From: Gammaproteobacteria bacterium | GTDB lineage: Bacteria; Pseudomonadota; Gammaproteobacteria; Arenicellales; JAOTWM01 | DNA: 50,844 nt | Assembly (NCBI GenBank): GCA_029862885.1 | Contig: JAOTWM010000001.1 | Location: 1 to 50,844, forward strand | Direction: 5' to 3' | In this document: piece after piece, positions 4,616 through 50,844 of the stretch | How positions within the stretch are numbered: the stretch's first letter is position 1 | How the letters are laid out: every line of letters begins with the position of its first letter | Made by a program: the position numbers and the translations under genes | Notes under the pieces: model-generated | What the model was told of the DNA's origin: nothing | Seen by the model: the letters and a program-made list of their open reading frames with translations, nothing else | The model's database searches: none

Positions 4616-4622
4616 TAGCAGC

Positions 4623-11626: not shown

Positions 11627-11737
11627 TTAATCGATGGAATTAACAAATGTAAAAGACATGCTGACAAGTATGGGGGTTATTATTTTTCATAGCGTTCGAA
11701 AAACACTTTCTCGACAATTGCTGCATAATATCAAGTA

Positions 11738-26524: not shown

Positions 26525-28084
26525 TTACTTAGGTATGTAATCATGCAAAAGCGGGATGGTAGATCGTGCAAATTGTCGAAGACGCCGGTCCCCCGCTTCA
26601 ATGGACTCTCGGCTGTCGATAGGCGTTGTGAGCCGGACCAGTGCACCATCCGTCCGGTTTTTGGTCAGAGCATCCGCCAACAAGTACCACTTCACAAGAT
26701 ATTCGTTTGCCATCAGGCGGCCGCGCTGCTGGAACCAGTAATAGACGAGCTGCCGCTGCTCGCCTCGTTTGATGATGACCCGGTTAAAATTCAACGCCGG
26801 CCCGCCACTCTGATCCAGGTCGAGCTGTTCGCGGCTCAGCGACGCGATCTGCCAGCCCCCACCAGGGATGCAGACCCGCGGCGAATGCGGAGACGTACCC
26901 TTGCGTTGGCTTTCGTAATAAGCCACGTATAGATTGAGAACATCGCCCGCAGGGTGCGTGTAGTTCGCCAGCAGGTAGTCGGTCAGACTGAGAATATCCA
27001 GAACCGGCTGCGTAATGTGATCCGGTTGGCCACGCCACTCGTCCAGCGTGAGGGGGAAAGTGCCCAAGGAAGCCCGAGAAGGCACCTTTTCGGAACGCTC
27101 TGCGATCGAATAGCCGGAGATCGCCACTGCGAAAACTACCAGTGTGGAGAACAAAAACGCGGTCGGCAACGTGTGCAGTGGCTGACTTGCAGAGGGTTTA
27201 TCGGGCGGCGAGCTTGCGCCCATGTCGAACATTCCCCAACCCGTGGGGTCACCCTTTCCGATCGGTGCGAGCAACCACATCTCCGCGAATAGCACCACAA
27301 CGCACGCCATGAAAATGAACCACCCCTCGAAGTCATGCAGGAATCCCTGCGCAGCCTCGATACCGACCTTGTCCGTCAGCACACCGATGATGCCGATCCG
27401 AAAACTGTTCATAAAAATGGTGATTGGAATGGTCGATAAGAACAACACGGCCTTCTTCCAGAAGCGCGCCCGCCAGATGTACGCGCAGATGAATCCAAAA
27501 CTCATCAGCGGATAAAGGTACCGCAGCCCGCTGCAGGCTTCGACGACCTGGAGCTTGTACACACCGAGGTCGATGACGTTGCCCTCGAGATAGACGGGTA
27601 TGTCGAATACGCGGATGACCGCAACGCCAATTCCGGAGGACAGTAACTGAAGCTCACCGGACAGATCCGAATCGATGAAATACGGGAGGGGAATCGCAAA
27701 CAACAGCAGCAGAATCGGAACCAGTACGATACGCAGTCCGCGCCACCCCATCAGCGCGAGGGCAAGGCCCAGCAGCATCGCGACAAGCGCGTAGTGGATC
27801 AGCAGGAACAAAGCGGTCAATTCGCCGAGCAGAGCAATTATAGCGCTTACGACGACGACCACTGCCCCAGTCCAGGACGGCTGGAACTGCAACACATTCA
27901 GTTCGGCGCGTTTCTGCCAGAGCAGGTAAAGACTGACAAGGACGATCAGGTAGCCGTGGCTGTACTCTTCCTGATTGTCCCAACGGCGTACCAATTCCTC
28001 AATGCCGCCTTGAAAACCGATACCGAGCGCCACGACCGATACCAGCAAAGTCCCCCAGAGCTTAAGCGCTAGCGACCCACTCAC
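26525..28084 (-). CDS. xrtA: Exosortase fused to a C-terminal EpsI-family domain
   Basis: 519 aa. Exosortase signature residues are present in context: VVEACSGLRYL (Cys), NSFRIGIIGV (Arg) and FLHDFEGW (His). The C-terminal domain carries the EpsI-type motif SPHSPRVCIPGGGW. The subtype is inferred only from the PrsT neighbour. Confidence 0.8.
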   Translation of the reverse strand: MSGSLALKLWGTLLVSVVALGIGFQGGIEELVRRWDNQEEYSHGYLIVLVSLYLLWQKRAELNVLQFQPSWTGAVVVVVSAIIALLGELTALFLLIHYALVAMLLGLALALMGWRGLRIVLVPILLLLFAIPLPYFIDSDLSGELQLLSSGIGVAVIRVFDIPVYLEGNVIDLGVYKLQVVEACSGLRYLYPLMSFGFICAYIWRARFWKKAVLFLSTIPITIFMNSFRIGIIGVLTDKVGIEAAQGFLHDFEGWFIFMACVVVLFAEMWLLAPIGKGDPTGWGMFDMGASSPPDKPSASQPLHTLPTAFLFSTLVVFAVAISGYSIAERSEKVPSRASLGTFPLTLDEWRGQPDHITQPVLDILSLTDYLLANYTHPAGDVLNLYVAYYESQRKGTSPHSPRVCIPGGGWQIASLSREQLDLDQSGGPALNFNRVIIKRGEQRQLVYYWFQQRGRLMANEYLVKWYLLADALTKNRTDGALVRLTTPIDSRESIEAGDRRLRQFARSTIPLLHDYIPK

Positions 28085-28183: not shown

Positions 28184-29341
28184 TCATCTTTTCGCGGCCC
28201 CGCGGATCACATCGAGTGTTTGCATTGCTGTCTTCTCCCAGCTGAATTGACTGGCGCGGTAAAGGCCCTTGCGGACGAAGGATGCATGCTCATCCTCTGA
28301 GGCTAGCAGAGCGAGGAGACCTTGGGCAATGGAATCTACGTCGAGAGGATCGAACAACACCGCGGCGTCACCGGCGATCTCGGGCATCGACGAGACGTTG
28401 GAACAAGCCACCGGCACTCCACAGGCCATCGCCTCTAGTATCGGCAGGCCGAAGCCCTCGAACAGCGAGGGAAAGACCAGCACGTCGGCGCCGCAGTACA
28501 GATCGGGGAGGTCTCGGCCGTGCACATAGCCGGTGAACAATATATGGTCATGCACGGGGGATTCCGACGCCGCGTGGCGGACCTCATCGGCTCGCACCCA
28601 GTCGGCGCCCGCGAGAACCAATTGGTGAGGGATCGCGTCACTCGCCTTGATTGACTCGAATGCGCGGATCAGCCGCACGTGGTTCTTTCCGGGGTGCTCG
28701 ATGCGGGAAACATAGATCACGTATGGGGCGCGTACACCGTACCCCCGAACGCGGTTCACGGCAGCGTCACGGTTCCGCGGGTAGAACATGTCGGTGTCGG
28801 CTGCGGAGTGAACTACCGCTACCCGATGCTCGGGCACTCCTACGTACTCGAGGAGATCGCGTTTGGTGCTCTCGCTGATAGCGATGATGCGGGTCAGCCT
28901 TTTCAGCAGCAGCGGTAGCACCCGGGTCTGGTAGAACATCCTCGCGTGGTCGTACTTTCCGGCCATGTGAAAGGGTGTCAAGTCATGGACCGTCCCAACC
29001 GTAGGGCACGGCACTCTAACCGGGGTCCGGCGACTGGCCGCGGGCAGAAACAACACGTCGAAACGCCTACGCCCGCAAACCGCGGGCAACGCGAGCTGGT
29101 GCCAGGCGATGTTGAGCATCGGGTTGCGTAACCACTCCGGGACACTTACAGCCGTCATGCATTCTGCGCTCGGCATGAACTCGTGTATCCCACTGCTGTG
29201 GGACAGAACCTCAAATGTGTCTTTACCAGGATTCGCGGCGAACTGCGCAATCAGGTTGGAGGCATATCGGCTCATACCCGATTTTAGATCGCAACCGAAA
29301 GTGGTAATCCCTATCCTCAAAGTTTCGTTTTCGAGCGACAT
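28184..29341 (-). CDS. GT4 family glycosyltransferase
   Basis: 385 aa with the C-terminal GT-B motif FPSLFEGFGLPILEAMACGVPV. Confidence 0.85.
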   Translation of the reverse strand: MSLENETLRIGITTFGCDLKSGMSRYASNLIAQFAANPGKDTFEVLSHSSGIHEFMPSAECMTAVSVPEWLRNPMLNIAWHQLALPAVCGRRRFDVLFLPAASRRTPVRVPCPTVGTVHDLTPFHMAGKYDHARMFYQTRVLPLLLKRLTRIIAISESTKRDLLEYVGVPEHRVAVVHSAADTDMFYPRNRDAAVNRVRGYGVRAPYVIYVSRIEHPGKNHVRLIRAFESIKASDAIPHQLVLAGADWVRADEVRHAASESPVHDHILFTGYVHGRDLPDLYCGADVLVFPSLFEGFGLPILEAMACGVPVACSNVSSMPEIAGDAAVLFDPLDVDSIAQGLLALLASEDEHASFVRKGLYRASQFSWEKTAMQTLDVIRGAAKR

Positions 29342-32659: not shown

Positions 32660-34228
32660 TTAGCCGAGACTCGCACGGGAGCGAATCCACTTTCGGTCGA
32701 GAATGTATCGTAGGGCCTCCTTGAGTTGCCGTTTGTCGATGTCCTTCATCATGAACCATAATACGGTAAAGTATGCACAGGTCCCCATGAAGGCATTGAG
32801 AGCCAAGGTCGCCCAGGTCTCGGCGGGGAATGCCCCCACGAGCCCATTCATCACCAGCAACGCTGCAAAAAAGGGCGGGAATCCAGGCAGCAGAATTTCC
32901 CGCCATACTTCAGGCCATGTCGCCCCCGCAATGTGTTTTCCGAAGGGCCAGAGCAGCAGCAGTGAGCCGAGACCATAAGTGACGAACGTGGCAGCGGCCG
33001 CCCCGATTGCCCCCAATTGATAATGCCCCACGAGAAGTAATGTCAGCGGCAGATTGGCGGCTGTAGAAACGGAGTTCCGAATAGCCAGGGAGCGCACGCG
33101 GATCTTTGCTGTCGCAATAACGGAATGAAGAATATTTCCATACACGATCGGATACACTGCGAGGAGCAGGAACAACACCGTTCCCGCAGCCAGGTAGGTG
33201 TCGCCCACATAGAGCCTGACGATCTGCTCGAAGTGGACCAGGAATGGAGCAACCACTACCAGTAAACCCCACAGCGCAAACCGTCCCAGACGCAGATAAG
33301 TACGCTTAAGTCTTTCATCCTGCCCCAGCGAATGCATGCCAATGATTACGGGTGCCACGGAATTACCGAACGCATTATTGATGATGACTTCCAGGCGATT
33401 GGGAACGAGCGCACCGAGATGGAAACAGGCGACGTCCAGGGGCGTTGCCAGTCGGTTCAGAATGATGGGGTCCGCGGCCTTCCTGATCATACCGGAGAAC
33501 CCATCTAACGAATTCCAGCCACCGAAGCTGATCAGATTTCTCGCGAGGTGCCAACGAATATGGGTGCGCTGGAAACATTGCGCGGGTACGAGACGGCGTG
33601 AGACGGTAGTCATCGCCGTGATATTGAGCAGATCCGCGGCGACGGTTGCTACGACGACCCAAACCACGCTAGTACTCAGACCGAACAATAGCGTCAACAA
33701 AAGAGAGAGCCGAAAGCATTCGGTGCCAAGTTCGATCAGATTCTGAAGGACGAAGCGCTGGCGCACGAACAGGCCGCCGCCGAATGCCGCCACCGGCAGC
33801 CGGATCGCGGCGGAGAACATGAGCAGGGTCAGCATGATGCGTGCATCATCGACATATTCCGGTGCGATCCTGAATACGTAGTCTATGTTCCATGCGAAAG
33901 TCACCCCGGCGGCAAAAAGACCAATTCCCGCGGCGCAAAGGATGGGGAACATTGTGGAAACGATCTGAGTGACGCGCTCATCATCCTCCTTGGCATAAGC
34001 TTCGAGCACGTAGCGGCTAATGCCACCCACCAAGGCCATGGTAATGAATGGGGCAAACATCATCACGGAGAAGAGCACCGGCAAAAGACTGTACTCCTCC
34101 GTCGATATTCGCTTGAGCAGGTATTGCTGGAGCCAGATGAGTACGGAAATGCTCAGCAGGCGCGTTGCAAAGGAGCTGGCGCTGTTGATCATTACCAGCT
34201 TCTTGCTGATTACAACGCGTTCGCTCAC
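32660..34228 (-). CDS. MOP-superfamily polysaccharide flippase (Wzx-like)
   Basis: About 12 or more TM segments with a typical flippase N-terminus (NSASSFATRLLSISVLIWLQQYLL). The GTG start overlaps the upstream TGA stop as GTGA (34225-34228). The longer ORF-track start would overlap the upstream gene by 130 nt. Confidence 0.8.
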   Translation of the reverse strand: MSERVVISKKLVMINSASSFATRLLSISVLIWLQQYLLKRISTEEYSLLPVLFSVMMFAPFITMALVGGISRYVLEAYAKEDDERVTQIVSTMFPILCAAGIGLFAAGVTFAWNIDYVFRIAPEYVDDARIMLTLLMFSAAIRLPVAAFGGGLFVRQRFVLQNLIELGTECFRLSLLLTLLFGLSTSVVWVVVATVAADLLNITAMTTVSRRLVPAQCFQRTHIRWHLARNLISFGGWNSLDGFSGMIRKAADPIILNRLATPLDVACFHLGALVPNRLEVIINNAFGNSVAPVIIGMHSLGQDERLKRTYLRLGRFALWGLLVVVAPFLVHFEQIVRLYVGDTYLAAGTVLFLLLAVYPIVYGNILHSVIATAKIRVRSLAIRNSVSTAANLPLTLLLVGHYQLGAIGAAAATFVTYGLGSLLLLWPFGKHIAGATWPEVWREILLPGFPPFFAALLVMNGLVGAFPAETWATLALNAFMGTCAYFTVLWFMMKDIDKRQLKEALRYILDRKWIRSRASLG

Positions 34229-35607
34229 GCTCGCGGATTCCGCTTTGTGTGGTAGTAAATGACGGCGGCCACGGCCATGACAATGTGGCCCAGAAAGAAA
34301 AGGGACGATTGACGGAATTCCCACTCCGTCACGCTCTGCATCAATACTCCACACAGGCTAAGACAGGCGCCCAGGCGGACGCGATCGATGAGTGTTTCGC
34401 TGGCGCTAGTCAGCCCCTTCCCTGAGATATATAGCCAGCGCGAAATAAGTGCCAAAAGCAACAGGAGGCCGGGCCAACCCAGCTCGACGGCCGTTATCAG
34501 GTAGAGATTGTGCGCCGGGGCTTCCTGACCGATTGCGTCCGGAGCAAATTCAGCGCTGGGGTAGGGCTCACTCTCGTACCCCGCCTTTGCAGCATAGCGG
34601 TTACTGATCCAGTAGCTCCAGTTGTTCAGACCGACGCCGAATACCGGGTTGTCGTTAAGGGCGGGGAGGCCTTTGCGAAAATAGCTTCCTCGATCTCCTT
34701 GTTCGGTCGTATATTCCTGTTGAAAATCGAATGACGCGAATCTAGTGAGCACTGTATCCCACGACTTGACCAGCATTCCAGTGCCAGCCAAGGCGAGCAG
34801 GGCGGCAAGCCCAATGTTACGAATGGTAAAACGGAAGCGGATGTTCAAAACTAGCGAGACCATCATGAGGAAAATCAATGATGCAATTCCGGTTCTGCTG
34901 ATTGTCAATATGATGCTTACGGCAGCCGCCAGACTGGCCGCCAAGCTTGCCTTCTTAAGATTTGGTGAGATATCCCGTGCGAACCACACGGATATGAGAA
35001 TCGGGAGAATTTGAAGACAGTACATCGAGAGGCTGTTTGGGTGCGGCAACGTTCCACTGATTCGATGAATGCCGAAGATATATCGATCTTGCAGCGCCAC
35101 GGCGGTCTCGTAAAACATAACGATCACGAGTGTCCACACGAATAGACGCACCTCCCGCGGCGACCGAACGTACGCTGCGACCGCCGTAAAGAGTAATATG
35201 CCACGGGCGATCTTCGTCAATTCGAACAGACCGAATATCTTCGGATCGCTGGTCACCAATACATTGAACGCCGCCCAAGCGAAGAATGCGACGAGCATTC
35301 CGAGGCTGGGCGGTCGAACAAACGGTATCCGTTCGCGACGGCGCGTGGAAAGACTAGCAAACAGAAGGATCAGAGCGAGCAGGTCCAAGTAGGAGACTTC
35401 GATACCGCGGGTTGTTCCCCGATACCATTCCCGGCTCAGAAAGTTAATGTCAGTCGGTAAGCCAAAAAGGCTCTCGGTCTGGGTCGTGCCAAAGACAAGG
35501 GCAAAGAATACGAGACCAAGAATACGAGGGTGACTCCGGGCAAGGAGGACACCGGTCGGCACACAGAACAGGCTGCCAATAGTGAAAATTAATTCTTTGG
35601 CTTCCAT
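34225..35607 (-). CDS. O-antigen ligase/Wzy-like polymerase family membrane protein (exosortase-locus type)
   Basis: 460 aa and polytopic. It has a Wzy_C-type loop (AHNLYLITAVELGWPG) and a large periplasmic loop. Confidence 0.75.
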   Translation of the reverse strand: MEAKELIFTIGSLFCVPTGVLLARSHPRILGLVFFALVFGTTQTESLFGLPTDINFLSREWYRGTTRGIEVSYLDLLALILLFASLSTRRRERIPFVRPPSLGMLVAFFAWAAFNVLVTSDPKIFGLFELTKIARGILLFTAVAAYVRSPREVRLFVWTLVIVMFYETAVALQDRYIFGIHRISGTLPHPNSLSMYCLQILPILISVWFARDISPNLKKASLAASLAAAVSIILTISRTGIASLIFLMMVSLVLNIRFRFTIRNIGLAALLALAGTGMLVKSWDTVLTRFASFDFQQEYTTEQGDRGSYFRKGLPALNDNPVFGVGLNNWSYWISNRYAAKAGYESEPYPSAEFAPDAIGQEAPAHNLYLITAVELGWPGLLLLLALISRWLYISGKGLTSASETLIDRVRLGACLSLCGVLMQSVTEWEFRQSSLFFLGHIVMAVAAVIYYHTKRNPRA

Positions 35608-35735: not shown

Positions 35736-36977
35736 TTATTTTTCCGGTGCGCCTGCGTCTACAGCATCCTCGTAGATCTCAATCAGGCTTCTCGTGATAA
35801 CGTCCCAGTCGAATCGTTCGTGAGCCTTCTTCATACCAGCCTCCACTCTTTTTGCTGTCTCGGGGTTACGGGCCAGCTCCTCGAAGACCTCGAGAAACGT
35901 CTGTTCGTCGCCCGGATCGAAACTGAGCGCATCATGACTATGCTCGACAAGATGCCGGATGCCGCCGACGTTGCTTGCCAATACCGGCTTCCCCGCGGCC
36001 CACGCTTCCAGGATTACGATGCCAAACGGCTCGTGGATCGACGGCAACAGGAAAACGTCAGAAGCGTGATAAGCGTCGACCAGATCCGGAGCGCTTGCCG
36101 GTAGACCAGGCACAATGGTTACGTGCCGTTCGATTCCAACATTGCGAATCACTGCCGTAAGCTCATCATAGTACGCGGGACTCGTCACATTGCCGACAAA
36201 CAGCAGATGCGTTTTTGGATGTATGTTGTGTAGTTTTGGCAATAGCCGCGCGGGTAATAGCTGGTTTTTCTGACGATCGATTCGGCCAACGGTCAGTATT
36301 ACGTATGCATCGGGTGGAATTCCATGCTGGGCCCTGAATTGTAGGCCGTCGCCCCGAGCAAAGCGCACCGGATCGACGCCGTTTGGCAGATGGATGACCC
36401 TTTTGTTGGGGTATCGCTCCTGGGTCAGTGTTTTCTCATTGTATCCAACGCACAGAATTGCCGCAGCGTCGTCGAGCACCCGGCGGGAGCCGACCCACCA
36501 GCCAAAGATTTTTCCCCATTCGAATGATCCCCTGGAGGGGGCGCTCCACGTTGCCGCCTCCTCCACTGGCACGTCGAAAACACCGCCATGAAGGGACACC
36601 ACATAAGGGATGCGGCGGCGTTGTGCTATATAGCGGCCAATTCCGCCGATTCGGTTACCGGCATGCAAATGAATCAGATCAAGATCCGGAACAGAGTTCA
36701 GCGCGCGCATCAGGCTGAAGGAAAAAGGGCTCCCGCCCTTTCGGTCGAGCAAATGTCTAGCCTCCCTGCTTAACCCTATGTAAGGGTAGAAATAAGGAAA
36801 ACGGCGCACCCGTACCCCATCGATCTCCTCCGCCACTCCGCTCGCTGTCGCCAGTGTGCACAGGATCTCGGTGGAATGCCCGAGGGCGAGCAGTCGTTTA
36901 CTCGTTTCGAAGATAACGGTTTCGGTTCCACCCCAGTCGCTCGGTACGAAACGTCTCGCTAGTTGAATCGACTTAAT
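35736..36977 (-). CDS. GT4 family glycosyltransferase, apparently initiated at ATT
   Basis: Carries the C-terminal motif LPSIHEPFGIVILEAWAAGKPV. The conserved GT4 N-terminus (KSIQLARRFVPSDWGGTETVIFETSKRLLALGHSTEIL) is open upstream of the first GTG (36836). It has no in-frame ATG/GTG/TTG back to the TAG at about 37020. An ATT at 36977 sits 8 nt after GGAG. Confidence 0.65.
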   Translation of the reverse strand: MKSIQLARRFVPSDWGGTETVIFETSKRLLALGHSTEILCTLATASGVAEEIDGVRVRRFPYFYPYIGLSREARHLLDRKGGSPFSFSLMRALNSVPDLDLIHLHAGNRIGGIGRYIAQRRRIPYVVSLHGGVFDVPVEEAATWSAPSRGSFEWGKIFGWWVGSRRVLDDAAAILCVGYNEKTLTQERYPNKRVIHLPNGVDPVRFARGDGLQFRAQHGIPPDAYVILTVGRIDRQKNQLLPARLLPKLHNIHPKTHLLFVGNVTSPAYYDELTAVIRNVGIERHVTIVPGLPASAPDLVDAYHASDVFLLPSIHEPFGIVILEAWAAGKPVLASNVGGIRHLVEHSHDALSFDPGDEQTFLEVFEELARNPETAKRVEAGMKKAHERFDWDVITRSLIEIYEDAVDAGAPEK

Positions 36978-37681: not shown

Positions 37682-37683
37682 TG

Positions 37684-38345: not shown

Positions 38346-38702
38346 CGATTACGTATTGCCGTAATAACCTATTTCAAACAAGAACGCTACACGAAAGATG
38401 CCGAACGGAAAGTTAACATTTTACATCGCAATTACCGCTGTGGAAATTCGCGGAATCATTGGTCCAAAGAATCAATCCGTTTATCGAATCACAATACGCA
38501 TTCTCCTGGATCGTGGACTACACCTCTAAAGGACCGGACAAATAGGTATTTTGGACGCGTGGTCTTCCTAGATAGCGCAAAGATTCAAGCTACATGACAA
38601 ACCCAAACGATACTAGAACTCGCTGACTTGTCCGCTCGTGTGGGCAGCTCGGTTTTTTTGGCCTTTTCAGCAATTAACGAAGTCGAGAGTGATAGACAGA
38701 GT

Positions 38703-41700
38703 ATGAAAGAAATCATCACGAAAGGCCCATGGGTGATCTGGATTGGGATCGGCTATTGGTTGTCATGCGTCGTCCTGGCCGCATCAGTAGTCGGCGTGGC
38801 AACTTCGACGGCCGAGGCTGCGCCCCCAACCCCTGAAGAACGCGAAGCGAGACGCGAAGCTAAATCATGCGAACGTAAAGCAAGGAAGCATGGAGGCAAT
38901 TTCAATTGTGCCCCCGTGGCGCACGATGACGCCGTCGAGACGGAGGAGAATTCGGCGCCTGTCGTCCTAAACGTGCTCAGCAACGACACGGATGCGAATA
39001 GCGACCCGCTGACCATCACAAATCTGAACGGGCCGAGCGCGGGTGGCGGCATATCTTTGGTGAACGGCGCCACGCAGGTCGAGTACTGGCCGGCCGTGGG
39101 CTTCGTCGGACAGGAAACGTTCAGCTACACGGCGAATGACGGGACCGTGGATTCAGCGTTGCCGGCGACCGTTACCGTGACGGTGACGGAGATGAGTGGG
39201 GGAGGCAATTCCAACAGTGCTCCGGTGGCGAACGACGACTCCGTCGAGACTGAGAAAGATTCGGCGGCGGTCGTCCTGACGGTTCTCAGCAACGACACCG
39301 ATGCGGATAGCGACCCGCTCACCATCACAAATGTGAGCACACCCAGTGCGGGCGGCGGAGTGATATTAGTAAACGGTGCCACGCAGGTCGAGTACACGCC
39401 CGCAGCAGGATTCGCAGGGCAGGAGACCTTTAGCTACACGGCGAATGATGGGACCGTGGATTCAGAGTTGCCCGCGACCGTAACGGTCACTGTGACAGAA
39501 CTCGGTGATGGTGGCGAGTCCAACAGTGCCCCCGTGGCAAACAATGACTCCGTCGAGACGGAGGAAAATTCGGCCGCCGTCATTCTGACCGTGCTCAGCA
39601 ACGACTGGGATGCCGATAACGACCCACTGACCATCACGTCTTTGAGCACGCCGAGCGCGGGCGGTGGAGTATATTTGGTCAACGGCGCCACGCAAGTCGA
39701 ATACTGGCCGGCAACGGGCTTTACGGGGCAGGAAACCTTCAGCTACACGGCGAATGACGGGACCGTGGATTCAGCGCTGCCAGCGACCGTCACGGTGACG
39801 GTGACGGAAGCGACTGCCGAGGCTCCGGGTGGTACCGCGCGCGCGCTGTGGCAGACGTCGGTGCAACCGTTGCTCGCGAGCGAGTGCGGCTCGTGTCACG
39901 TGGGGGAACGCTTCGGTTTTGCCGCCCTGCAAGGGGCAGGTCCAACCTTCACGAGCGGCGAGACGGAAGTCAATTACCAACGTTTCCTCGATCTTATCTC
40001 GCTCGATGATCCCGCATCGAGTCGACTCTTGGGCAAGCCGCTGGACGAAACAAAGCCCAAGGGGCTGGTCCACGGTGGCGGTACTCTGTTCGATGAAACC
40101 TCCCCGACCTATACAGCCATCATGCAATGGATTCTCGAAGAAAAAGCGGAGCGCTGCCCGGACTGCGGATTAGACGCACCCGTCCAGTATCTTGCCTATG
40201 TAGAGCAACCGCGTATCTTCTGGGCCCTCGAGCGGGACCCGGTCCGGTCCGATCACGGATTGCGTGATCGTGCGCGGATCTTTCTCCAGCCGCTGCAACC
40301 GCAAACGCTCGCGCCCAACGGGCCGCCGATTGATTTTCTCGGTGAGTCCTTCTGCGGCGTCGACGGGAACTGTGATTTCGGTCATCTTGCGGCAAGTCAT
40401 GATGGTAGTAAACTGGCTTTCGAGTGCCGCATGGCCGAGCCCGGTGAGGACTGGTTTCCCGATGCCCGCTGGAACATATGTATTGCCGAGATCGGAGCGG
40501 ACGGGCGGGCGATCAACCCGCGTGTACTGCGGCCACAGGGGCGACACAGCGGCCAAACCATGTCACGCAGCGATCCGTTCGGTCTGTACTCGGCTGACGG
40601 CGGACCACTGAAGGGTGTTTGGGATCATCATTTCCAAGTCCGCCGTCGCGACGATCGCACGCCGGTCTTCGGCCCGAACGACGAATGGGTGTACCTGTCG
40701 AGCCGGGGACTCGATCCACGAACTGGTAGTGACGGCACACGCACGTATCACGGTTTCGAACACGTGAACAACATCGTCGCCGTACGTGCTGATGGCAGCG
40801 GGATACGTTCGGTGTATCGCAACGAAGGCGGGGAAGCGGACTTCCCGTTTTTTCGGAGCAACGGCATCCTCGTATTTCACACCTGGAATTTGGAACGGAT
40901 GGACCGTCATCTCTATACCCAATCCACGCCCGATGGAATGATGGAGTTGCCGGTATTTTTAGGCCGGGTGCAGGGCGAGAACCAGTGGGGAAAAGCCGTC
41001 GAGCTGGCGGGCGGAGCCGTGTTAGGTATGACCGGACGGCGCTTCGCATCCATCGATAACTATGTACCGTTCCTGGGTGAACACACCCTCGGCGCGGGGC
41101 TTGCGGGCAATCCATCGCCAATCGTCGTACTCGATCCCGTTGTCCATGAACAGATCGCATCATTTCCAAACGGGATGTGCAAAGAGCCCCCCAACGGCCC
41201 CAACTGCGTCATCGATCGCTACTACGAAGACCCTGCTTACGCCCCCGATGGCCGTGCATACATCGCGCACAATCCCGAACCCACTTATGTCCTGCAAGGA
41301 GAAGCCATGTATGGGGCCTACGGCAGTGGCTCGTCGTACACGCCGGCTCGGCTGGGCATCTATTTGATCGATACCCAAGGCAGCTTGGAGTCGGTGCTCG
41401 AGCCAACTGACGGAACGATGTTCCGTTATCCGACCTGGGTGGGCCGCCGTCAGCCGCCGCGCGCCCAGCCGGTTATCACTGACGAGAGTCAGGACAGCAG
41501 TATTCTGCATATTGCCGATGTGCCGCTGTGGCTGACATACCGGCGCGGGCCGGATCATACGGGCGGGACCAGCAAAGCCAACCACATGGCGCTGCTCGAT
41601 ACGATCGTCGCGCTGCGCATACTGGTCAAGGAAATGGACGGCAACGCCTGCACGGACGACGGGCGGCCTTATCGATTTGCGGTGAACGCGGGATATTACG

Positions 41701-42779
41701 ACCACCCGACCCACCTCGGTATCAACAACGCTACCGGTTATAAGCGTCTGGCATTGCCGGTCAATCTGGGCGGGGATGCCTGGGGTGATGTGCCGTTACA
41801 GGCCGACAAGTCGGTGAATCTACGCTTGCCGGCAGGCGAATTACTATTATTCCAGGGAATTGATGCCGACGGCCACGTCGTAGCCCAGCATGCCCGAGTC
41901 TTTGCCATGCCGCCAGGCCACCAAGTGGATACGTCGGTGAAGCGGCCGCAGTACGATGCGCAGTGCGCCTCCTGTCACGGGTCTGTCGATTCGGGCAGTG
42001 CGTTCGTGCCTTTAACGAGCTTTGAAAGCGCACCGTTCGTACCCATGGATTTCACAACAATTGCATCAAGCCAAGCGCCGGTTGACCTGACCGCTTCGGC
42101 TGTGGAACAGCAAAGGATGACATTCCTACATCGCATCCGTCCCCGGCTGGATCGCGACTGTGTCGCCTGCCACAGCGGACCTTCGCCGGCGGGCGAACTG
42201 AGTCTGGAGTCGTCGTATTCGGCGACGGCGAACTACCCTGCGGGCAAGTGGGCAGCAACTTATCTCGCCGACAGTGCCTACTTGAGCTTCGTTCCACCAG
42301 CTGAACGTGTCTCAGGCTACAATTACTCGGTCGCCTGGTCGTGGCTGATGCGTCAAGACCAAAACGAGTACAAGAACCACCCGGCCTATGCCGATCTTCT
42401 GGCCGGCTACAGCCCCGTGGGTGATCTGGCGCCCTGGGATCCGGCTTATCAAAACTTGTTCGCCAACGACGGCAGTGTATTCGTGTACTTGAGTGGCAAT
42501 CGGCACTCGAGCTTCGGCCGCAGCGACCGCACCAATGGGAATTCACGCGACAGCTGGTTGTTGGAGATTCTGTCCGGCCGGGATCTGTCTCCGGCCCGCG
42601 ATTTCACCGGTCCAGACCACACCGGCTATTTCAGCGAAGGAGAAATCCGCGACCTGATGGGGGTAATCGATGTTGGCTTTCCTTATATGGCGCGCTGCGA
42701 CGACAAGACAATTCCGTCGGGGCCAAATTCAGGGAAACCTTGGGGAGATCCCGTTTCGCAATCTTATCCTGGTGGTTAG
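38703..42779 (+). CDS. Large secreted/anchored protein: 3 cadherin/VCBS-like repeats plus a C-terminal ~980-aa region with three CxxCH heme-c motifs and beta-propeller-like signatures
   Basis: The ATG at 38703 precedes a hydrophobic signal/anchor (WVIWIGIGYWLSCVVLAASVVGVATSTAEA). Three 103-aa repeats follow. CxxCH motifs are CGSCH (39885-39899), CASCH (41964-41978) and CVACH (42159-42173). The ORF is unbroken for 4.1 kb. Confidence 0.8.
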   Translation: MKEIITKGPWVIWIGIGYWLSCVVLAASVVGVATSTAEAAPPTPEEREARREAKSCERKARKHGGNFNCAPVAHDDAVETEENSAPVVLNVLSNDTDANSDPLTITNLNGPSAGGGISLVNGATQVEYWPAVGFVGQETFSYTANDGTVDSALPATVTVTVTEMSGGGNSNSAPVANDDSVETEKDSAAVVLTVLSNDTDADSDPLTITNVSTPSAGGGVILVNGATQVEYTPAAGFAGQETFSYTANDGTVDSELPATVTVTVTELGDGGESNSAPVANNDSVETEENSAAVILTVLSNDWDADNDPLTITSLSTPSAGGGVYLVNGATQVEYWPATGFTGQETFSYTANDGTVDSALPATVTVTVTEATAEAPGGTARALWQTSVQPLLASECGSCHVGERFGFAALQGAGPTFTSGETEVNYQRFLDLISLDDPASSRLLGKPLDETKPKGLVHGGGTLFDETSPTYTAIMQWILEEKAERCPDCGLDAPVQYLAYVEQPRIFWALERDPVRSDHGLRDRARIFLQPLQPQTLAPNGPPIDFLGESFCGVDGNCDFGHLAASHDGSKLAFECRMAEPGEDWFPDARWNICIAEIGADGRAINPRVLRPQGRHSGQTMSRSDPFGLYSADGGPLKGVWDHHFQVRRRDDRTPVFGPNDEWVYLSSRGLDPRTGSDGTRTYHGFEHVNNIVAVRADGSGIRSVYRNEGGEADFPFFRSNGILVFHTWNLERMDRHLYTQSTPDGMMELPVFLGRVQGENQWGKAVELAGGAVLGMTGRRFASIDNYVPFLGEHTLGAGLAGNPSPIVVLDPVVHEQIASFPNGMCKEPPNGPNCVIDRYYEDPAYAPDGRAYIAHNPEPTYVLQGEAMYGAYGSGSSYTPARLGIYLIDTQGSLESVLEPTDGTMFRYPTWVGRRQPPRAQPVITDESQDSSILHIADVPLWLTYRRGPDHTGGTSKANHMALLDTIVALRILVKEMDGNACTDDGRPYRFAVNAGYYDHPTHLGINNATGYKRLALPVNLGGDAWGDVPLQADKSVNLRLPAGELLLFQGIDADGHVVAQHARVFAMPPGHQVDTSVKRPQYDAQCASCHGSVDSGSAFVPLTSFESAPFVPMDFTTIASSQAPVDLTASAVEQQRMTFLHRIRPRLDRDCVACHSGPSPAGELSLESSYSATANYPAGKWAATYLADSAYLSFVPPAERVSGYNYSVAWSWLMRQDQNEYKNHPAYADLLAGYSPVGDLAPWDPAYQNLFANDGSVFVYLSGNRHSSFGRSDRTNGNSRDSWLLEILSGRDLSPARDFTGPDHTGYFSEGEIRDLMGVIDVGFPYMARCDDKTIPSGPNSGKPWGDPVSQSYPGG
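38904..39809 (+). repeat. Three tandem 309-bp coding repeats (cadherin-like domains)
   Basis: Repeat units begin at 38904, 39213 and 39522, an exact 309-nt period. Long identical blocks are shared, e.g. TTCAGCTACACGGCGAATGACGGGACCGTGGATTCAG. Confidence 0.9.
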
Positions 42780-42791
42780 TGCGAAACCCGT

Positions 42792-43886
42792 CTACTTCGC
42801 AACATACTTGGTTCGAGTGTCAGGCCAGAAATCTACCTGCTGGAGTCGGAGAGAACGGTGCGCTTGATAGCATGTGATCAAATCTACGCAAAAACCCGCT
42901 ATTGCTACTGGGAAGTAACCGATCCTGCTCAGGCCACCCAGCAGCTTCAATCGGCGAAACCGAAAGGTTAATGCGTCGGGATATAGGTTCCAGAAACGGG
43001 TTGTGGACCTGACATATTCCTTGAAAGGGCGTATACACCATTCCGGATCTAAAGTTTCCCGGTTCATAACGGTTTCAGCGAACCTGTAACGATCATCTCT
43101 GGATAGTCGAGGTAAGAATTGTTCACATAGGAAGTAAGTAATAGTCTGGGCTACCTTCTGTCGTTTTTGATTATTTAAAACATCCCCTATCGCTGTGTAC
43201 GCCTGAAACACGTGCGAAGCGTCCTGGGTCCGCGCGATACGGTTAGAATTAGACTCAGCAGTCAATAGGTCAGTACAAACGAGCGTCTTAATAAAACCAT
43301 CCTCGACTAAAAGCCCTCGCGGCAACCGGATTTTGCGGGCCATAGACGCCCTGATGCAGTAGAGCTGGCCTGTCAACTGAGCGGATCCTGCCTGAGTCAT
43401 CTTTGAGGTGCCCAGGGAAATCAGCCGGGTCAACGGCGAGGCCGCTCCGTGTTTCACGTCCTTGACCGGCTGATCTGTCGATACTTGGGCGAACGAATCC
43501 GTCTCCAAAGCGATTAGCATGGACCACATCGCGTCCCGCTCATTGACGAGAATGTCGGCATCCATCAGGAACAGATAGTCGGCCTCATTATTCGAGAGTT
43601 CATGAACGAAGACGTTCCAGGCATTCACCTTCCCCCTCTCTTTCAGCTCGACTACCTGACACCGAACGTCTTCTGGAATTTTGATTTTCGTCGATTGTGA
43701 ATTATCGAATACGGCCTGTGCCAGCTCTTGTGTTCTATCAGTGCACCCATTTGCTACGACGAGGACTTCCGTCTTGCCCCCGCGATCGCTGACAAGACGG
43801 AAAATACTTTGTCGGAACAAAGAACCAAGGGTGGCTTCAATGGACTCTTCTTCGTTCCAGGTAAGAACACCGATCGATATAAACAT
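42792..43886 (-). CDS. GT2 family glycosyltransferase
   Basis: 364 aa with ISIGVLTWNEEESIEATLGSL, VLVVANGCTDRT and FLMDADI (DxD) motifs. Confidence 0.85.
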   Translation of the reverse strand: MFISIGVLTWNEEESIEATLGSLFRQSIFRLVSDRGGKTEVLVVANGCTDRTQELAQAVFDNSQSTKIKIPEDVRCQVVELKERGKVNAWNVFVHELSNNEADYLFLMDADILVNERDAMWSMLIALETDSFAQVSTDQPVKDVKHGAASPLTRLISLGTSKMTQAGSAQLTGQLYCIRASMARKIRLPRGLLVEDGFIKTLVCTDLLTAESNSNRIARTQDASHVFQAYTAIGDVLNNQKRQKVAQTITYFLCEQFLPRLSRDDRYRFAETVMNRETLDPEWCIRPFKEYVRSTTRFWNLYPDALTFRFRRLKLLGGLSRIGYFPVAIAGFCVDLITCYQAHRSLRLQQVDFWPDTRTKYVAK

Positions 43887-44295: not shown

Positions 44296-46875
44296 TCAGG
44301 GAAGATACCAACGCCCAAACAACACTTTTGGGCGGCGTGGCTTGGCCGGCAATGCCGACGCATCTGGTGACCAGTTGTCCGGTGCAAGCATAGCGGTGGT
44401 GAAGATCGTCGACGCCATGGTTTCCTGGATGGTGAACTCGTTTTGCCCAACGTTGACATGCGGATGTACCATCCAGCGCCGCCACAGTGGCGGGCTACGT
44501 TGCGATTCGTGGCTAATAAAATCGACGGTGCCGGCTTGCGTAGGCGATTGCCACACTGTTTCGCGAAACTTGTGGTAGACCGGTCCACCGGTAATACCGT
44601 AGATCGTAATGCCCGGAACCGGATCGACGATGCCGTCGGTCTCGCTCATCTCGTGCTGAATGTCAATTGGGTAAACGAAACCGAGACCGGTGGTCCAGGA
44701 CATGCCCATGGGGTTGGCACCGAACATGAAATCGGTGTTCACGATGGCGGCATCGCGGTATTTCGGGTCATCGGTCAGCTGGTAGGCGATGAACAGAGCC
44801 CGGTTGAAGTTCGTCATGTCGCTATTTCCCCAGGCAGCCCAGTAATCCTGCTTGCGGGGCCACGTGACGGCGTACGGCGACTCATCGAGGTGCGCGACGA
44901 GGGCGTCTGCGTCACGGATGAACCATTTGCGCCATTGCTTGCCAAGCCCCCGGGGCAGCGCGTGGGTGGCCTCGATGAGGCTAAAGTAGATCCAGGGAGA
45001 AAAATCCTTGCGTGAGAAGTGCCACTCGTAGGGCCTGTGGCTCATCTTCGCTAAGCGCCGCACGCCTTCTAGATAGGGTAGTTCGCCGGTGAGGAGAAAA
45101 AGTCGGAGCTTCGCATGAAGAAGATACGGCTCAATGTGCTCGTCGGTCTCGGCCCAATGTATTGTGTACGGCTCGCCCCTACCGCGCTTGCGCTTAGCGT
45201 GGATAACCGTCTGCCCGAGCGAGTTGGACGGATCATTGCCAAAAGCGTAGGCACGGTCTGCAGCATCTCGGTAGAGAGTGGCATCCACGGAATCGAATGG
45301 GGCGACCAACTGGGCGTATTGAGCCGCAGCCGCAGCGAAGATAAGTGACGACCAGCGCGTCCGCTGTGAAAACGCATAATCCACTTCCTCGTTATTGATG
45401 TCTGGATGGGTCCATGTCTCGAGCATGCCCGAGACACCGCCCCGGCTGTCCATGCTGTGTCGCCAGATCTCTAATCCGTAACGCGCCTCGTCCAGGATAT
45501 CGGGTATGCCATTGCCGGACTCGGGCAAGTCGAGTTGCCCGTCGGTGAAACGCTTTGGCGCCAGTGCGTAAGCATTGAGTAAGTCAAACACAACCGTGTA
45601 ATGGGCATCGTTCGAATCCCAATCGGCCGCGTCGTGCCAACCACCAGCGACTTCTTCAGTCTGCGTAGAACGATCGATCGTAGCGCCAATCACATCGAAC
45701 CGATCGTAGTCCTTGGGGCCGCCGGTATGGCGGGGGAAGGCGATATGCTCGGATTCGTAGTAGGGCGCCATTGGCGCTTTGCGCCGTGTCCATTGTGAGT
45801 GTTGCAGGGTAATCGCAGAGCCGGCCCGTTGGTGATAGAGCCCGCGTGCAGCGGTGTAAAATGCCGGCCCATACACCGACGCACTGTGTCGAAAAGGCCA
45901 TGACCGACCGACGCCGGGCACGCTGATAAAAAACACGCCCTCGTCTTTGAGTTCAGTAAAGTCAGCAACGTGGACATCCTCGCCATACATCAAGGGGCGG
46001 GATGAAGGGTTCTGCGAGTCATCCTTGGGCGCGAATCGCGGATTGGCCTCCAATAACTCCAAAGAGCCTTTCAACGCAACTTCGCCGCTCCTCGCGTTGA
46101 TCACCTCAAAGCGATCGGCATACGATAAATCCATAGGGCCGAACCGATACAAATAGGCACCAAGATAGGCCTGCTTCCGCCCCGCCTCCGGCAGGTAGCC
46201 GACTTGATTTACCTTGATCGCCCGAGAGACCGTGGTTTTGCGATCGAACACGAACGAGACCTTCTTTCCGTCACCCAACTTGATCTCATAGTGCGCGCCG
46301 TCGCGCATCGGTCTGGGGAATAATAGGTAGCTGTAGACACGGTAATCGATGTTGAACACGCCGCCGCTGGTCCGGTTCATGCCCGCAGAGACGAGCAATC
46401 GGTCCGCCTGGGCTGGGCGTGTCGGCTGGGTGTAGCGATCGTCGTCCGGGCTTCGGATGCTGAAAAAGCTTGCCTGTCCCAAAAGCCGCTCGCCGATGGC
46501 TTCGCGGGCTTCGGCCACATGCTTGTCGCGGACCTTCCAACGCTCACGATACGCACCCCAATTCGGACGCCCTTCCTTTTCGCTGTTTTCCCAGAGTTCG
46601 ACAGTTTGACGAAGTTTACCGTTGGACCGGAGATCGATTTCTTTGAAAAGTTCCTGCATCTTATTGGTGACCACGATCACCCAGCGGTCTGAGAGCACCA
46701 GCAGTTGCTCGACGCCGTCGTAGTCCGGGATGTGGATCGGGTGCATGCCCTCAAGCGTATCGGGAATTGGCGCTAGCGACATTTCAGAACCGCCGAGCCC
46801 ATCGGCCGCAGCAGGCGTCAGCACGATACGGACAATGATCAATGCGATCAGGATCCCAATGATGTTCCTACACAT
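44296..46875 (-). CDS. Secreted glycoside hydrolase family 9-like protein with Ig-like and extra N-terminal domains
   Basis: 859 aa with a signal peptide. An Ig-like segment reads VNQVGYLP..KQAYLGAY...FEVINARSGEVALKGSL. GGWHDAADWD (45616-45645) corresponds to the GH9 GGWYDAGD motif. A C-terminal VGQNEFTIQETMA string matches the NE acid motif. Confidence 0.6.
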   Translation of the reverse strand: MCRNIIGILIALIIVRIVLTPAAADGLGGSEMSLAPIPDTLEGMHPIHIPDYDGVEQLLVLSDRWVIVVTNKMQELFKEIDLRSNGKLRQTVELWENSEKEGRPNWGAYRERWKVRDKHVAEAREAIGERLLGQASFFSIRSPDDDRYTQPTRPAQADRLLVSAGMNRTSGGVFNIDYRVYSYLLFPRPMRDGAHYEIKLGDGKKVSFVFDRKTTVSRAIKVNQVGYLPEAGRKQAYLGAYLYRFGPMDLSYADRFEVINARSGEVALKGSLELLEANPRFAPKDDSQNPSSRPLMYGEDVHVADFTELKDEGVFFISVPGVGRSWPFRHSASVYGPAFYTAARGLYHQRAGSAITLQHSQWTRRKAPMAPYYESEHIAFPRHTGGPKDYDRFDVIGATIDRSTQTEEVAGGWHDAADWDSNDAHYTVVFDLLNAYALAPKRFTDGQLDLPESGNGIPDILDEARYGLEIWRHSMDSRGGVSGMLETWTHPDINNEEVDYAFSQRTRWSSLIFAAAAAQYAQLVAPFDSVDATLYRDAADRAYAFGNDPSNSLGQTVIHAKRKRGRGEPYTIHWAETDEHIEPYLLHAKLRLFLLTGELPYLEGVRRLAKMSHRPYEWHFSRKDFSPWIYFSLIEATHALPRGLGKQWRKWFIRDADALVAHLDESPYAVTWPRKQDYWAAWGNSDMTNFNRALFIAYQLTDDPKYRDAAIVNTDFMFGANPMGMSWTTGLGFVYPIDIQHEMSETDGIVDPVPGITIYGITGGPVYHKFRETVWQSPTQAGTVDFISHESQRSPPLWRRWMVHPHVNVGQNEFTIQETMASTIFTTAMLAPDNWSPDASALPAKPRRPKVLFGRWYLP

Positions 46876-49336: not shown

Positions 49337-50497
49337 TCAACCGCCTCTCGAGACCAGTCGAGCGAGAGCCCGACGGAGGTCGTCATCGCTGGGTTCGGAT
49401 GTGCGCAGCGCCAGCAGCCTGGCGGCGACACCGCGACTCGCGGGGTTTTGGTGGCCATAGGCCAGGGCTACGGCGATGCGCGCCAACCGCTCCCGAATGT
49501 GGCCGAGGTATGGGAACAAGCTGGCCTCCCGTTTTGCAACAGCGCGCAGCGAAGACACGACCGTACCAACTGGCCGTACGTCCGGTAGTTCGGGATACAG
49601 TCTTCCTTTCCAAGAGGCAAAAGCCGCTACGTTCGTTGGCGCGCCGGCCCGCCAGCTTTCGAAACGAAGATGCTGGATAGAGATCATCTCGCGCGTAGTC
49701 TCATACCAGGTATTGATGTCACCACCGGCGGGCTGCCATAGATCCGGTCGCTTGCGAAACTCCACCGCGTCATGATAAGCAGCGACTAACCACATACCAA
49801 CATACGGAGCACTCTCAAAACGTTGAATGGCTTCGAGGCGAAGAGCGAGAGTGCTTTGGTAATGATCCGCCGCCAACAGCAGCGCATCCCCGCATGCCAG
49901 CACGGCCTTATGGGCGTGGCGCGCCTTTCGATAGTCGTTATCGGTTGACTTCAGATTACTCAACGCCAAACCCACCGCGCGGTTGGCGAGTAGCCGGCCG
50001 CATTCCTCCAGGGGAATATCGCGTGGCGTCAGATTGCGTAACTCCGCCACGATTTGCTGGTCACCTGCCACGAGCTCATATCCACCCAACGAGACATCCA
50101 GCCAGAACAGTGTGCGGGGCAGTCTTGCCAGAGAGTTCTCGGATAACGGTGAGAGCTCGACCTCCACACCCAGCTTCCCCGTCCACTCGTGGGATAGCGT
50201 GGCGAGTTTTTTGCGGACAGATCGCCAACCACTCACTACTACCATAAAATCGTAATCGTTGTACGGAGACAAACGGCCGTTTCGCATCACCATACTGCCT
50301 TCTCCGCGGGCGTAGCCGCCTACCAACAACAACGCTCGTAGACGTCCCCCCAGCTCGTGCGAGATCGCTCGCCCTACCGCGTCGAGGTCGCCGGCGATAC
50401 GTGCTTCCGAGTCGAAATCCGCCAATAGCGTGCGGCCTCCATTTCTCGTGCCTGGAGAGCAGCGTATCTTTTCACATGTGGCGAGAACGCGCTTCAA
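49337..50497 (-). CDS. Pol-beta-fold nucleotidyltransferase-like protein with helical C-terminal domain
   Basis: A G[SG]...DxD-type pattern is present in LLVGGYARGEGSMVMRNGRLSPYNDYDFMVVV. The proposed TTG start at 50497 abuts the upstream GT2 stop. The longer ORF-track start would overlap that gene by ~280 nt. The stop abuts the start of the next gene. Confidence 0.5.
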   Translation of the reverse strand: MKRVLATCEKIRCSPGTRNGGRTLLADFDSEARIAGDLDAVGRAISHELGGRLRALLLVGGYARGEGSMVMRNGRLSPYNDYDFMVVVSGWRSVRKKLATLSHEWTGKLGVEVELSPLSENSLARLPRTLFWLDVSLGGYELVAGDQQIVAELRNLTPRDIPLEECGRLLANRAVGLALSNLKSTDNDYRKARHAHKAVLACGDALLLAADHYQSTLALRLEAIQRFESAPYVGMWLVAAYHDAVEFRKRPDLWQPAGGDINTWYETTREMISIQHLRFESWRAGAPTNVAAFASWKGRLYPELPDVRPVGTVVSSLRAVAKREASLFPYLGHIRERLARIAVALAYGHQNPASRGVAARLLALRTSEPSDDDLRRALARLVSRGG

Positions 50498-50844
50498 GTG
50501 CGTGAGATTGACGGGGTTTTGTGACGCCCTGCGTAGTAACCGGTAGCCTGGGCGCAGCGAATTGCTACGCTGCTCGGTGTGAAGATTCGAGCACGGGCAT
50601 CGCGTAGCAGACTGCCCGCGAGCGGCTTCGCCCACTCCCGCAACCATGATGGCGATCCGAGACGATGGATTCTGTTGTCCGCGGCGCCCTCCCCGAATCG
50701 CCGCTGGTACTGCTCGCGCACGCCATAGTTGTGGGAATGTTGGAATCGCGCATGGGGAACGTAGATGACTTTCCACCCCATTGCGGTAACCCGATGGGTC
50801 CAGTCGACGTCTTCAGAATACCGGAGCTCCTCATCGAACGGCAA
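50494..50844 (-). CDS. GT2 family glycosyltransferase, C-terminal part (5' end outside the window)
   Basis: FDEELRYSEDVDWTHRVTAMGWKVIYVPHARFQHSH is the typical GT2 C-terminal (ED...W) region. The ORF runs off the window edge. Confidence 0.7.
   Translation of the reverse strand: MPFDEELRYSEDVDWTHRVTAMGWKVIYVPHARFQHSHNYGVREQYQRRFGEGAADNRIHRLGSPSWLREWAKPLAGSLLRDARARIFTPSSVAIRCAQATGYYAGRHKTPSISRT

Follow-up and report, generated by a model that had tools for sequence, protein, structure and literature searches.

The heme-protein gene and its layout

The stretch of DNA examined here, which we refer to as the window, comprises positions 1 to 50,844 of contig JAOTWM010000001.1 (assembly GCA_029862885.1) of a gammaproteobacterium of the lineage Arenicellales. 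The subject of our analysis is one gene within it, P0001 in the public gene call, which lies inside an exopolysaccharide (EPS) locus and encodes a protein with three CxxCH heme-attachment motifs. The coordinates of this gene, its domains and its neighbors are collected in Table 1. Its placement within an EPS locus, proposed in the initial annotation, agrees with the genes found around it, which encode a fused exosortase XrtD-EpsI, several glycosyltransferases (GT), a Wzy_C protein and a GH9 glycoside hydrolase. An in-frame TTG at 38628, upstream of the ATG at 38703, was graded unlikely as the start codon, and an identical gene was called on two public metagenome contigs (L035 and L036). The product had been described as giant, which at 1358 amino acids (aa) is an overstatement.

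The protein begins with the signal or anchor segment that had been recognized earlier: aa 9-33 form its sole hydrophobic segment (Kyte-Doolittle 19-residue mean 2.04), and from these letters the N-terminus is predicted to be either a signal-anchor or a Sec signal whose core is unusually long. It is followed by three tandem copies of a 309-bp unit (103 aa, 80% DNA matches). The description of these units as cadherin- or VCBS-like is well supported by profile scores above the cut-offs, both in Pfam (Big_9, 182.9 bits against a cut-off of 23.6; Cadherin_5, 136.6 bits) and for the NCBIfam tandem-95 repeat NF012211 (136.2 bits against a cut-off of 90), and both Big_9 and NF012211 matched three stretches. 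The protein shares these profile matches with tandem-95 or Big_9 adhesin-type proteins but differs from them in having three repeats only, as an N-terminal addition to an enzyme-like core. The core, previously estimated at about 980 aa, consists of the 979 aa downstream of the repeats and carries all three CxxCH motifs. No PEP-CTERM or VPLPA-CTERM motif and no hydrophobic segment were found at the C-terminus (...PWGDPVSQSYPGG), as the initial annotation had stated for PEP-CTERM, and the protein was ruled out as an exosortase (XrtD or PEP-CTERM-type) substrate because the C-terminal sorting tail is missing.

Heme motifs and their conservation

The motifs CGSCH, CASCH and CVACH occupy aa 395-399, 1088-1092 and 1153-1157, with spacings of 693 and 65 residues, in a protein that contains 19 Cys and 31 His. 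The claim that three such motifs are unlikely to arise by chance held: among 100,000 residue shuffles none contained three CxxCH, and even one appeared in just 0.5%. Searches with the core recovered about 100 homologues, 44-72% identical over their full length and none of them named, in Binatia, Nitrospira, Myxococcota, Marinicella, Cellvibrio, Dokdonella and Thermoanaerobaculia. In every full-length homologue the number of CxxCH motifs is exactly three, and their positions in the alignment coincide.

We used an alignment of 84 sequences, numbered along the core, to quantify this conservation. All three motifs are kept across it, with C16/C19/H20 and C709/C712/H713 invariant and C774/C777/H778 conserved at 99%. 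Five further His residues are invariant (core positions 78, 304, 415, 622 and 927), the other ten core Cys are invariant or almost invariant, many Arg and His residues are invariant, and one Met alone is conserved. The conserved Cys pairs of the propeller described below probably form disulfides. The strings that had been read as reminiscent of TolB and HzsA proved to be genuine family motifs: TYHGFEH, HTWNLERMDRHLY, GMTGRR and DHTLG are invariant in the propeller and WNLERMD is almost invariant, and HzsA followed by TolB are also the closest fold matches. A remote sister family, A2, retains the motifs of hemes 2 and 3, and its two N-terminal domains bear CX4CH motifs instead of CxxCH. In the AlphaFold2 model the motifs lie at helix ends in helical subdomains, like those of cytochromes c, and the N-terminal heme domain recurs in other multidomain cytochromes. 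Because the three motifs are conserved in the 84 homologues and those of hemes 2 and 3 are kept in A2, we regard the protein as very likely a c-type heme protein, and the invariant His457 (HGGG, heme 1) and His1306 (DHTG, heme 3) as candidate distal ligands. An extracytoplasmic location accords with the pairing of conserved Cys, with the export signal and with the signals of the homologues, which are of the lipoprotein or Sec type. A Bacteroidota relative whose gene adjoins ccsA likewise speaks for heme c.

The N-termini of the homologues are diverse. Most have a lipoprotein signal followed by a long acidic, Gly-rich or Ser-rich linker, Nitrospira-like and Marinicella homologues have plain Sec signals, and others carry Cys-rich EGF-like repeats, a Cys-rich helical domain or long Ig-like arrays. 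Among family members the Big_9 repeats occur in the window protein only. We infer that the theme shared by these N-termini is a membrane tether with a spacer, and that the spacer of the window protein is the three-unit Ig-like stalk.

Fold and relation to the hydrazine synthase alpha subunit

The AlphaFold2 model of the core, built from the 84-sequence alignment (predicted local distance difference test score 94.7, predicted template-modeling score 0.94), comprises a helical N-terminal domain, a propeller of about 25 strands, a beta-sandwich and helical C-terminal parts. The top match in a Foldseek comparison with the PDB was HzsA, the alpha subunit of hydrazine synthase (kuste2861, PDB 5C2V chain A; 5c2v_A, E 2.4e-21, target template-modeling score 0.60, 12% identity), with an alignment of 978 columns that covered the whole core. 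The runner-up, TolB (E 3e-11), matched the propeller only. TolB shares the propeller fold, and some members of the family have faint PD40 repeat matches, but TolB is heme-free and about 430 aa long, the window protein has no TIGR02800 match and the likeness is confined to the propeller; kinship with TolB beyond this likeness of fold was rejected.

Searches at the level of sequence gave fainter signals. Those against PDB sequences, with the single protein and with the profile, returned marginal matches only, one of them a cytochrome c at E 0.006, and the family profile aligned the heme-3 segment with the heme alpha-II segment of HzsA, again marginally (E 0.016). The profile searches suggested in the initial annotation therefore had a divided outcome: the cadherin-like repeats passed, whereas all Pfam matches on the core were sub-threshold, namely Cytochrome_CBB3 (23.9), HZS_alpha (PF18582, 21.4 bits against a gathering score of 26.6), a faint PccH and PSCyt1. 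Many family members have precomputed PF18582 matches, and those that we looked up were marked faint or weak. The NCBIfam scan found no family for the 979-aa core; its hydrazine_alpha model (NF052339, equivalog cut-off 800 bits) gave no match at E<=1 for the window protein and none at E<=0.001 for the family members P0007 and P0070.

An exhaustive profile search of 1.84 billion representatives returned 1618 matches at E<=0.001. The tight family is small, with about 10 full-length representatives at 50% clustering, and a second tier of proteins of 900-1100 aa follows at E 1e-40 to 1e-15. Several of these second-tier proteins score above the Pfam HZS_alpha cut-off and contain PD40 repeats, and they match NCBIfam hydrazine_alpha at E 1e-9 to 1e-20, far below the equivalog cut-off. 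When the family was aligned with 24 HZS_alpha-domain proteins using hhalign, the probability was 100% (E 2e-52, 767 columns); four of the five HZS_alpha-domain proteins that were scanned pass PF18582, a curated threshold below which the window protein falls. Because HzsA is the top structural match and the profiles align at E 2e-52, we conclude that the core is a divergent branch of the HzsA-like beta-propeller cytochrome c superfamily. Its domain order is a cytochrome c domain, a propeller of about six blades, an HZS_alpha-like middle domain with a heme and a C-terminal heme domain, with heme 2 corresponding to heme alpha-I of HzsA and heme 3 to heme alpha-II.

The propeller, the middle domain with its c-type heme and the C-terminal c-type heme domain are thus held in common with HzsA, but heme 1 lies in an added N-terminal cytochrome domain, which is also found in the sister family with CX4CH motifs. 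The hosts of the window family are non-anammox bacteria (anammox being anaerobic ammonium oxidation), largely aerobes. In HzsA, heme alpha-I has a Tyr at +4 after CxxCH, and a His and a Cys bind zinc (PMC12758564). The window protein lacks a Tyr at +4 after the heme-2 motif (CASCHGSVDS, family consensus CHGxID), so that normal His ligation is expected. No hzsB-like, hzsC-like or fused BC neighbor was found in the window or in any fetched locus that was annotated or compared; the published HzsA-like clades I-IV, in contrast, adjoin a fused HzsBC-like gene, often together with an FG-GAP protein (PMC12758564). Since both the HzsBC-like partner and the special ligation of heme alpha-I are missing, and NF052339 gave no match, a hydrazine synthase was ruled out. 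The window family has in common with the non-anammox HzsA-like clades and A2 the propeller, the middle domain and the two C-terminal hemes, and it differs from A2 in having one N-terminal CxxCH domain where A2 has two CX4CH domains. Distant HzsA-like proteins outside anammox are known from bioinformatic work, none with an established function (PMC12758564, PMC10732223), and the same is true of the window family, for which no function is known experimentally.

The polysaccharide locus in the window

The polysaccharide locus begins at about 22.4 kb, continues to the window's end and encodes a PrsT-like TPR protein, a WecA-like transferase, GT4, GT8 and GT2 enzymes, Wzy_C, GH9 and a phosphodiesterase-family protein in addition to the exosortase. 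All open reading frames (ORFs) of the window were searched for VPLPA-CTERM or PEP-CTERM tails and none had one; therefore, the substrates of XrtD must be encoded elsewhere.

Table 1. Coordinates of the heme-protein gene, its domains and the neighboring genes of the polysaccharide locus
Feature	Position	Strand	Basis and remarks
Heme-protein gene P0001 (public gene call)	38703..42779	+	Complete ORF, ATG start, 1358 aa
Export signal or signal-anchor (predicted), aa 1-39	38703..38819	+	Long hydrophobic core at aa 9-33, then AEA/A
Three tandem 103-aa Ig-like repeats (Big_9 / Cadherin_5 / tandem-95)	38892..39809	+	Profile scores, DNA repeat search
N-terminal helical cytochrome c domain, core aa 1-115	39840..40184	+	Motif CGSCH at 39885-39899; conservation, AlphaFold2 model
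Beta-propeller, ~25 strands, ~6 blades	40185..41519	+	AlphaFold2 model; Foldseek to HzsA, then TolB
Middle beta-sandwich domain, HZS_alpha-like, ending in CASCH (41964-41978)	41520..42119	+	Faint Pfam match, AlphaFold2, Foldseek, hhalign
C-terminal cytochrome domain with CVACH (42159-42173)	42120..42776	+	Profile match to HzsA heme alpha-II segment, conservation
Exosortase XrtD (VPLPA-CTERM type) fused to EpsI	26525..28084	-	NCBIfam 588.7 bits, cut-off 400
GT4 glycosyltransferase	28184..29341	-	Orthologues near the heme gene in L040 (37.5% over 368 aa, E 8e-77) and L060 (33%, E 5e-54)
Wzy_C polymerase or ligase	34225..35607	-	Orthologue (36%, E 1e-74) directly adjoins the heme gene in L060/L053
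GT4 glycosyltransferase	35736..36836	-	L060 orthologue, 57% identity, E 2e-126
GT2 glycosyltransferase, convergent with the heme gene	42792..43886	-	Ends 12 nucleotides from the heme gene
GH9 glycoside hydrolase with CelD_N domain	44296..46875	-	L060 GH9 homologue, 30%, E 5e-34, same side of the heme gene
Protein of unknown family	49337..50776	-	Common to the L060 cluster, 33% over 239 aa, E 1e-21 to 1e-25

The gap between the two convergent genes, for the heme protein and the GT2, is too short for an intrinsic terminator, and at their 3' ends the two transcripts would therefore overlap. The 1.87 kb immediately upstream of the heme gene (36837-38702) contain no ORF longer than 89 aa and have a G+C content (GC) of 0.47 against 0.56 for the window. 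Searches of this stretch gave neither an Rfam family nor promoter enrichment, blastx detected no similarity to the loci fetched, and the only repeats were two short inverted pairs. Non-coding DNA of this length is unusual in bacteria; the stretch may be regulatory or a scar left by recombination.

Other observations concern the remainder of the window. By comparison with L035 and L036, a deletion of 1 nucleotide near 30204 splits a 498-aa GT4 (29567-31063) into two ORFs, 29535-30248 and 30335-31066, and an in-frame deletion of 3 nucleotides near 35844 lies within the GT4 gene 35736-36836. Positions 12001-14000 have a GC of 0.41 against 0.51-0.62 elsewhere; this part covers the gene of a 623-aa TPR protein (11738-13609) and the adjoining GT2 gene (13599-14393) and may have been acquired horizontally. 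The left end of the window (244-5846 and 8206-11228) contains type II secretion or type IV pilus-like genes (T2SSM_b, PilN/PilM-like, T2SSE ATPase and T2SSF) and a DUF3482 GTPase and DUF2868 gene pair, apparently unrelated to the heme gene.

Genomic context of the homologues

We compared the surroundings of homologous genes in 28 GTDB loci and seven homologue-contig look-ups, and later in further loci that included L040, L053 and L060. The contexts in the first set were varied, with no common neighbor and no homologues of the EPS genes of the window except one GT2, and it was provisionally concluded that the EPS location is incidental. This conclusion was partly reversed by L040, L053 and L060. 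In L040 (protein P0007, 61% identical, GC 0.47) the heme gene is followed by genes for GDSL, WecG, GT4, AsnB, GT2 and GT4. L053 and L060 encode protein P0074, which is 49% identical and comes from a genome with a GC of 0.69. The order on the left side of L060 is GT2, unknown, kinase-like, GT4 and Wzy on the minus strand, then the heme gene on the plus strand, and on the right side PIN/RHH, glyoxalase, GH9 on the minus strand, pyruvyl transferase, nitroreductase, beta-helix, GT4 and flippase. The order Wzy, heme gene, GH9 is therefore common to the window and L060, and five genes of L060 have orthologues in the window, with identities of 30-57%. The GT2 gene at the right edge of the window, complete on contig L035, matches GT2 genes of both L040 and L060, which are 57.5% identical to each other. 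Orthologues of the GT4 and GT2 of L040 occur both on the contig of the window and in L060. In L012 and L038, from a Polyangiaceae genome, a GT2 that is 29% identical to the convergent GT2 of the window lies directly upstream of the family gene. The family tree places the window protein and P0007 in sister clades and P0074 far from the window protein.

The co-occurrence with exosortase or EPS loci that had been put forward in the initial annotation was thus borne out in one part and not in the other, as L040 and L053/L060 carry EPS orthologues but no exosortase or counterpart of XrtD-EpsI was seen in them, and about 30 other loci have no EPS genes. The association with EPS genes is real but partial: it holds for a subset of the family rather than for the whole, and it concerns a Wzx/Wzy gene set, not the exosortase. 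Clustering of the neighbors at 55 loci gave no conserved partner, the sole recurrent neighbor being a Ser/Thr kinase, a gene class that is very abundant in Myxococcota.

Two further observations were made at the homologous loci. In L060 a PIN/RHH toxin-antitoxin pair (10977-11635) immediately follows the heme gene inside the EPS cluster, a hint of gene flux at this site. In L029 (6243-8657) and L002 (10796-13345) the next gene on the same strand encodes a lipoprotein of 804-849 aa with eight CxxCH motifs and C-terminal TPR/HEAT repeats. These loci belong to close relatives (L029/L030, protein P0004, and L002; about 71% identity to the window heme protein), for which the octaheme lipoprotein is a possible redox partner. 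A similarity search found no homologue of it in the window.

A remote group of relatives was recovered when the core was compared with plasmids by tblastn, which found Bacteroidota genes whose annotation reads 'SUMF1/EgtB/PvdO family nonheme iron enzyme'. Their resemblance to the core spans about 275 aa at about 24% identity (E 4e-7). Such genes lie at 3919-7986 of L061 (Fulvitalea axinellae plasmid pFA2) and in L062-L064; WP_338395270.1 of the same species exemplifies the arrangement of NPCBM, propeller, HZS_alpha, diheme and FGE-sulfatase parts. The 1355-aa Fulvitalea fusion encoded in L061 has two NPCBM stretches, a propeller, an HZS_alpha match of 121 bits, two CxxCH motifs and an FGE-sulfatase domain, and its gene follows a SusC/SusD pair. 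Its paralogues adjoin arylsulfatases, with FGE and GH3 genes in one locus and a nitric-oxide reductase in another, and a Parabacteroides relative adjoins ccsA. The fusions share with the window protein the middle domain, the heme region and a glycan context (SusC/SusD, arylsulfatases, GH3), but they have two hemes rather than three, additional carbohydrate-binding and FGE-sulfatase domains, and a setting of glycan degradation rather than biosynthesis. At least one other branch of the superfamily is therefore tied to glycans, a relationship that is remote and serves as supporting evidence only.

Proposed function and alternatives

The explanation of the whole that we favor, with somewhat more belief than doubt, is that the window protein is an exported, membrane-tethered triheme c-type enzyme that in this organism acts most likely on polysaccharide or its building blocks. 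The protein would be exported and its hemes attached in the periplasm. The middle-domain heme (CASCH) would pack against the propeller, as heme alpha-I does in HzsA, and form the catalytic site, with the substrate bound by the invariant His, Arg, Asp, Trp and Tyr residues of the conserved propeller motifs. Hemes 1 and 3, which are probably bis-His because no Met is conserved in their domains, would use His457 and His1306 as distal ligands and relay electrons to or from a periplasmic redox partner. The three Big_9 repeats would take the place of the lipoprotein linker found in most homologues and, as a rigid stalk, keep the enzyme clear of the membrane. In this lineage the substrate or working site would be EPS or its building blocks, for example in a redox modification or processing step alongside GH9. 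A polysaccharide seems a likelier substrate than an unrelated small molecule because the gene lies inside an EPS cluster here and in two unrelated genomes. Of the roles suggested in the initial annotation, that of an oxidative polysaccharide-modifying enzyme is possible.

Several observations weigh against the favored explanation. The heme gene lies on the strand opposite to all flanking EPS genes of the window and appears to be its own transcription unit, and in L060 and L040 the genes that flank it lie on both strands. The roughly 30 other loci with a flank of at least 5 kb have no EPS genes and no common neighbor, among them L031, the closest relative with enough flank; L029 and L002 have a GT2, methyltransferases and the octaheme partner only. 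The sister-clade position of the window and L040 proteins leaves only about two independent EPS associations, and a rough estimate for two to three such placements among about 37 loci gives a chance of p ~0.002-0.02. No ccm or ccs genes were annotated among the genes of the 51-kb window. Because the 1.87-kb non-coding stretch in the window and the toxin-antitoxin pair in L060 border the heme gene, hitch-hiking of this gene in a mobile island is possible. Finally, no member of the superfamily outside anammox has a proven function (PMC12758564).

In the alternative that survives best, the protein works on its own in the periplasm as an oxidoreductase whose substrate is a small molecule (an oxyanion of nitrogen or sulfur, hydroxylamine or NO, or peroxide), and the gene is an island hitch-hiker whose place among EPS genes is incidental. 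We consider it unlikely overall, with a chance that is still substantial. It would account for the lack of a conserved neighbor around most homologues and for a separate, opposite-strand unit beside a long non-coding stretch; the GC of the heme gene (0.60) is nearer to that of the non-EPS part of the window (0.59-0.61) than to that of the EPS genes (0.51-0.56), and an anionic substrate would be in keeping with the large number of invariant Arg and His residues. HzsA, the sole characterized structural relative, acts on small nitrogen compounds (PMC12758564). This alternative fits less well with a heme gene that stands amid EPS orthologues in three genomes whose GC values are 0.47, 0.56 and 0.69, in two of them in the order Wzy, heme gene, GH9, and with remote relatives that are fused to carbohydrate-binding modules in polysaccharide-utilization loci.

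A bolder form of the polysaccharide reading would extend it to the family as a whole, as an unrecognized class of extracytoplasmic heme-c enzymes that act on glycans and are accessory to the GT4/GT2/Wzy/GH9 type of cluster, the ancestral role of the HzsA-like scaffold, which gave rise to the hydrazine synthase of anammox, being related to glycans and not to nitrogen chemistry. The beta-propeller cytochrome would then redox-modify cell-surface polysaccharide or lipid-linked precursors. We hold this extension to be rather improbable.

More improbable again is extracellular electron transfer, a role suggested in the initial annotation, here in a form without catalysis, in which the Ig-like stalk would position three hemes as a relay that links the cell to the EPS matrix or to minerals. 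The Ig-like repeats and the adhesion-like N-terminal modules of homologues (EGF-like or Cys-rich, with long linkers) do suggest surface display, and the octaheme cytochrome-TPR lipoprotein gene lies directly downstream in close relatives. The role fits poorly, however, with three hemes in 979 aa, widely spaced and with a large propeller between them, whereas MtrC/OmcS-type conduits have a high heme density, and an electron-transfer conduit was rejected as the leading model on this low density. The strongest invariant motifs are in the propeller, as expected of a catalytic or binding site, and the hosts Marinicella, Cellvibrio, Dokdonella, Nitrospira and Myxococcota are largely aerobes. Very improbable, lastly, is a protein without heme, in which the CxxCH Cys would form disulfides or a metal site and the propeller would be structural or binding: the sub-threshold Pfam cytochrome matches and the window without ccm or ccs genes would be in keeping with it, but the full pentads including the His are conserved at all three sites, the motifs sit at helix ends in cytochrome c-like subdomains, motif 3 aligns with heme alpha-II of HzsA and motif 2 comes after the HZS_alpha-like domain, the position of heme alpha-I in HzsA.

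Significance

The evolutionary origin of hydrazine synthase, the signature enzyme of anammox, is under debate. We know of no heme protein in EPS pathways of the Wzx/Wzy or exosortase type, and a literature search for one found no description. The HzsA-like superfamily as such is already known, and recent work describes its distant homologues as uncharacterized and mostly present in anaerobes (PMC12758564). What is new here is a stand-alone three-heme HzsA-like lineage, with a unique Ig-like stalk in the window protein, that is found recurrently inside one type of EPS cluster. The family extends the HzsA-like scaffold to largely aerobic bacteria, and its cultured members, for example Marinicella meishanensis NBU2979 with its stand-alone copy, offer tractable systems in which the role of this scaffold outside anammox can be studied. 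If the embedding of the gene among EPS genes reflects function, it would point to redox chemistry on a secreted polysaccharide and thus to a new step in EPS biology; if it reflects island hitch-hiking only, the result would be a new, well-defined cytochrome family of unknown function.

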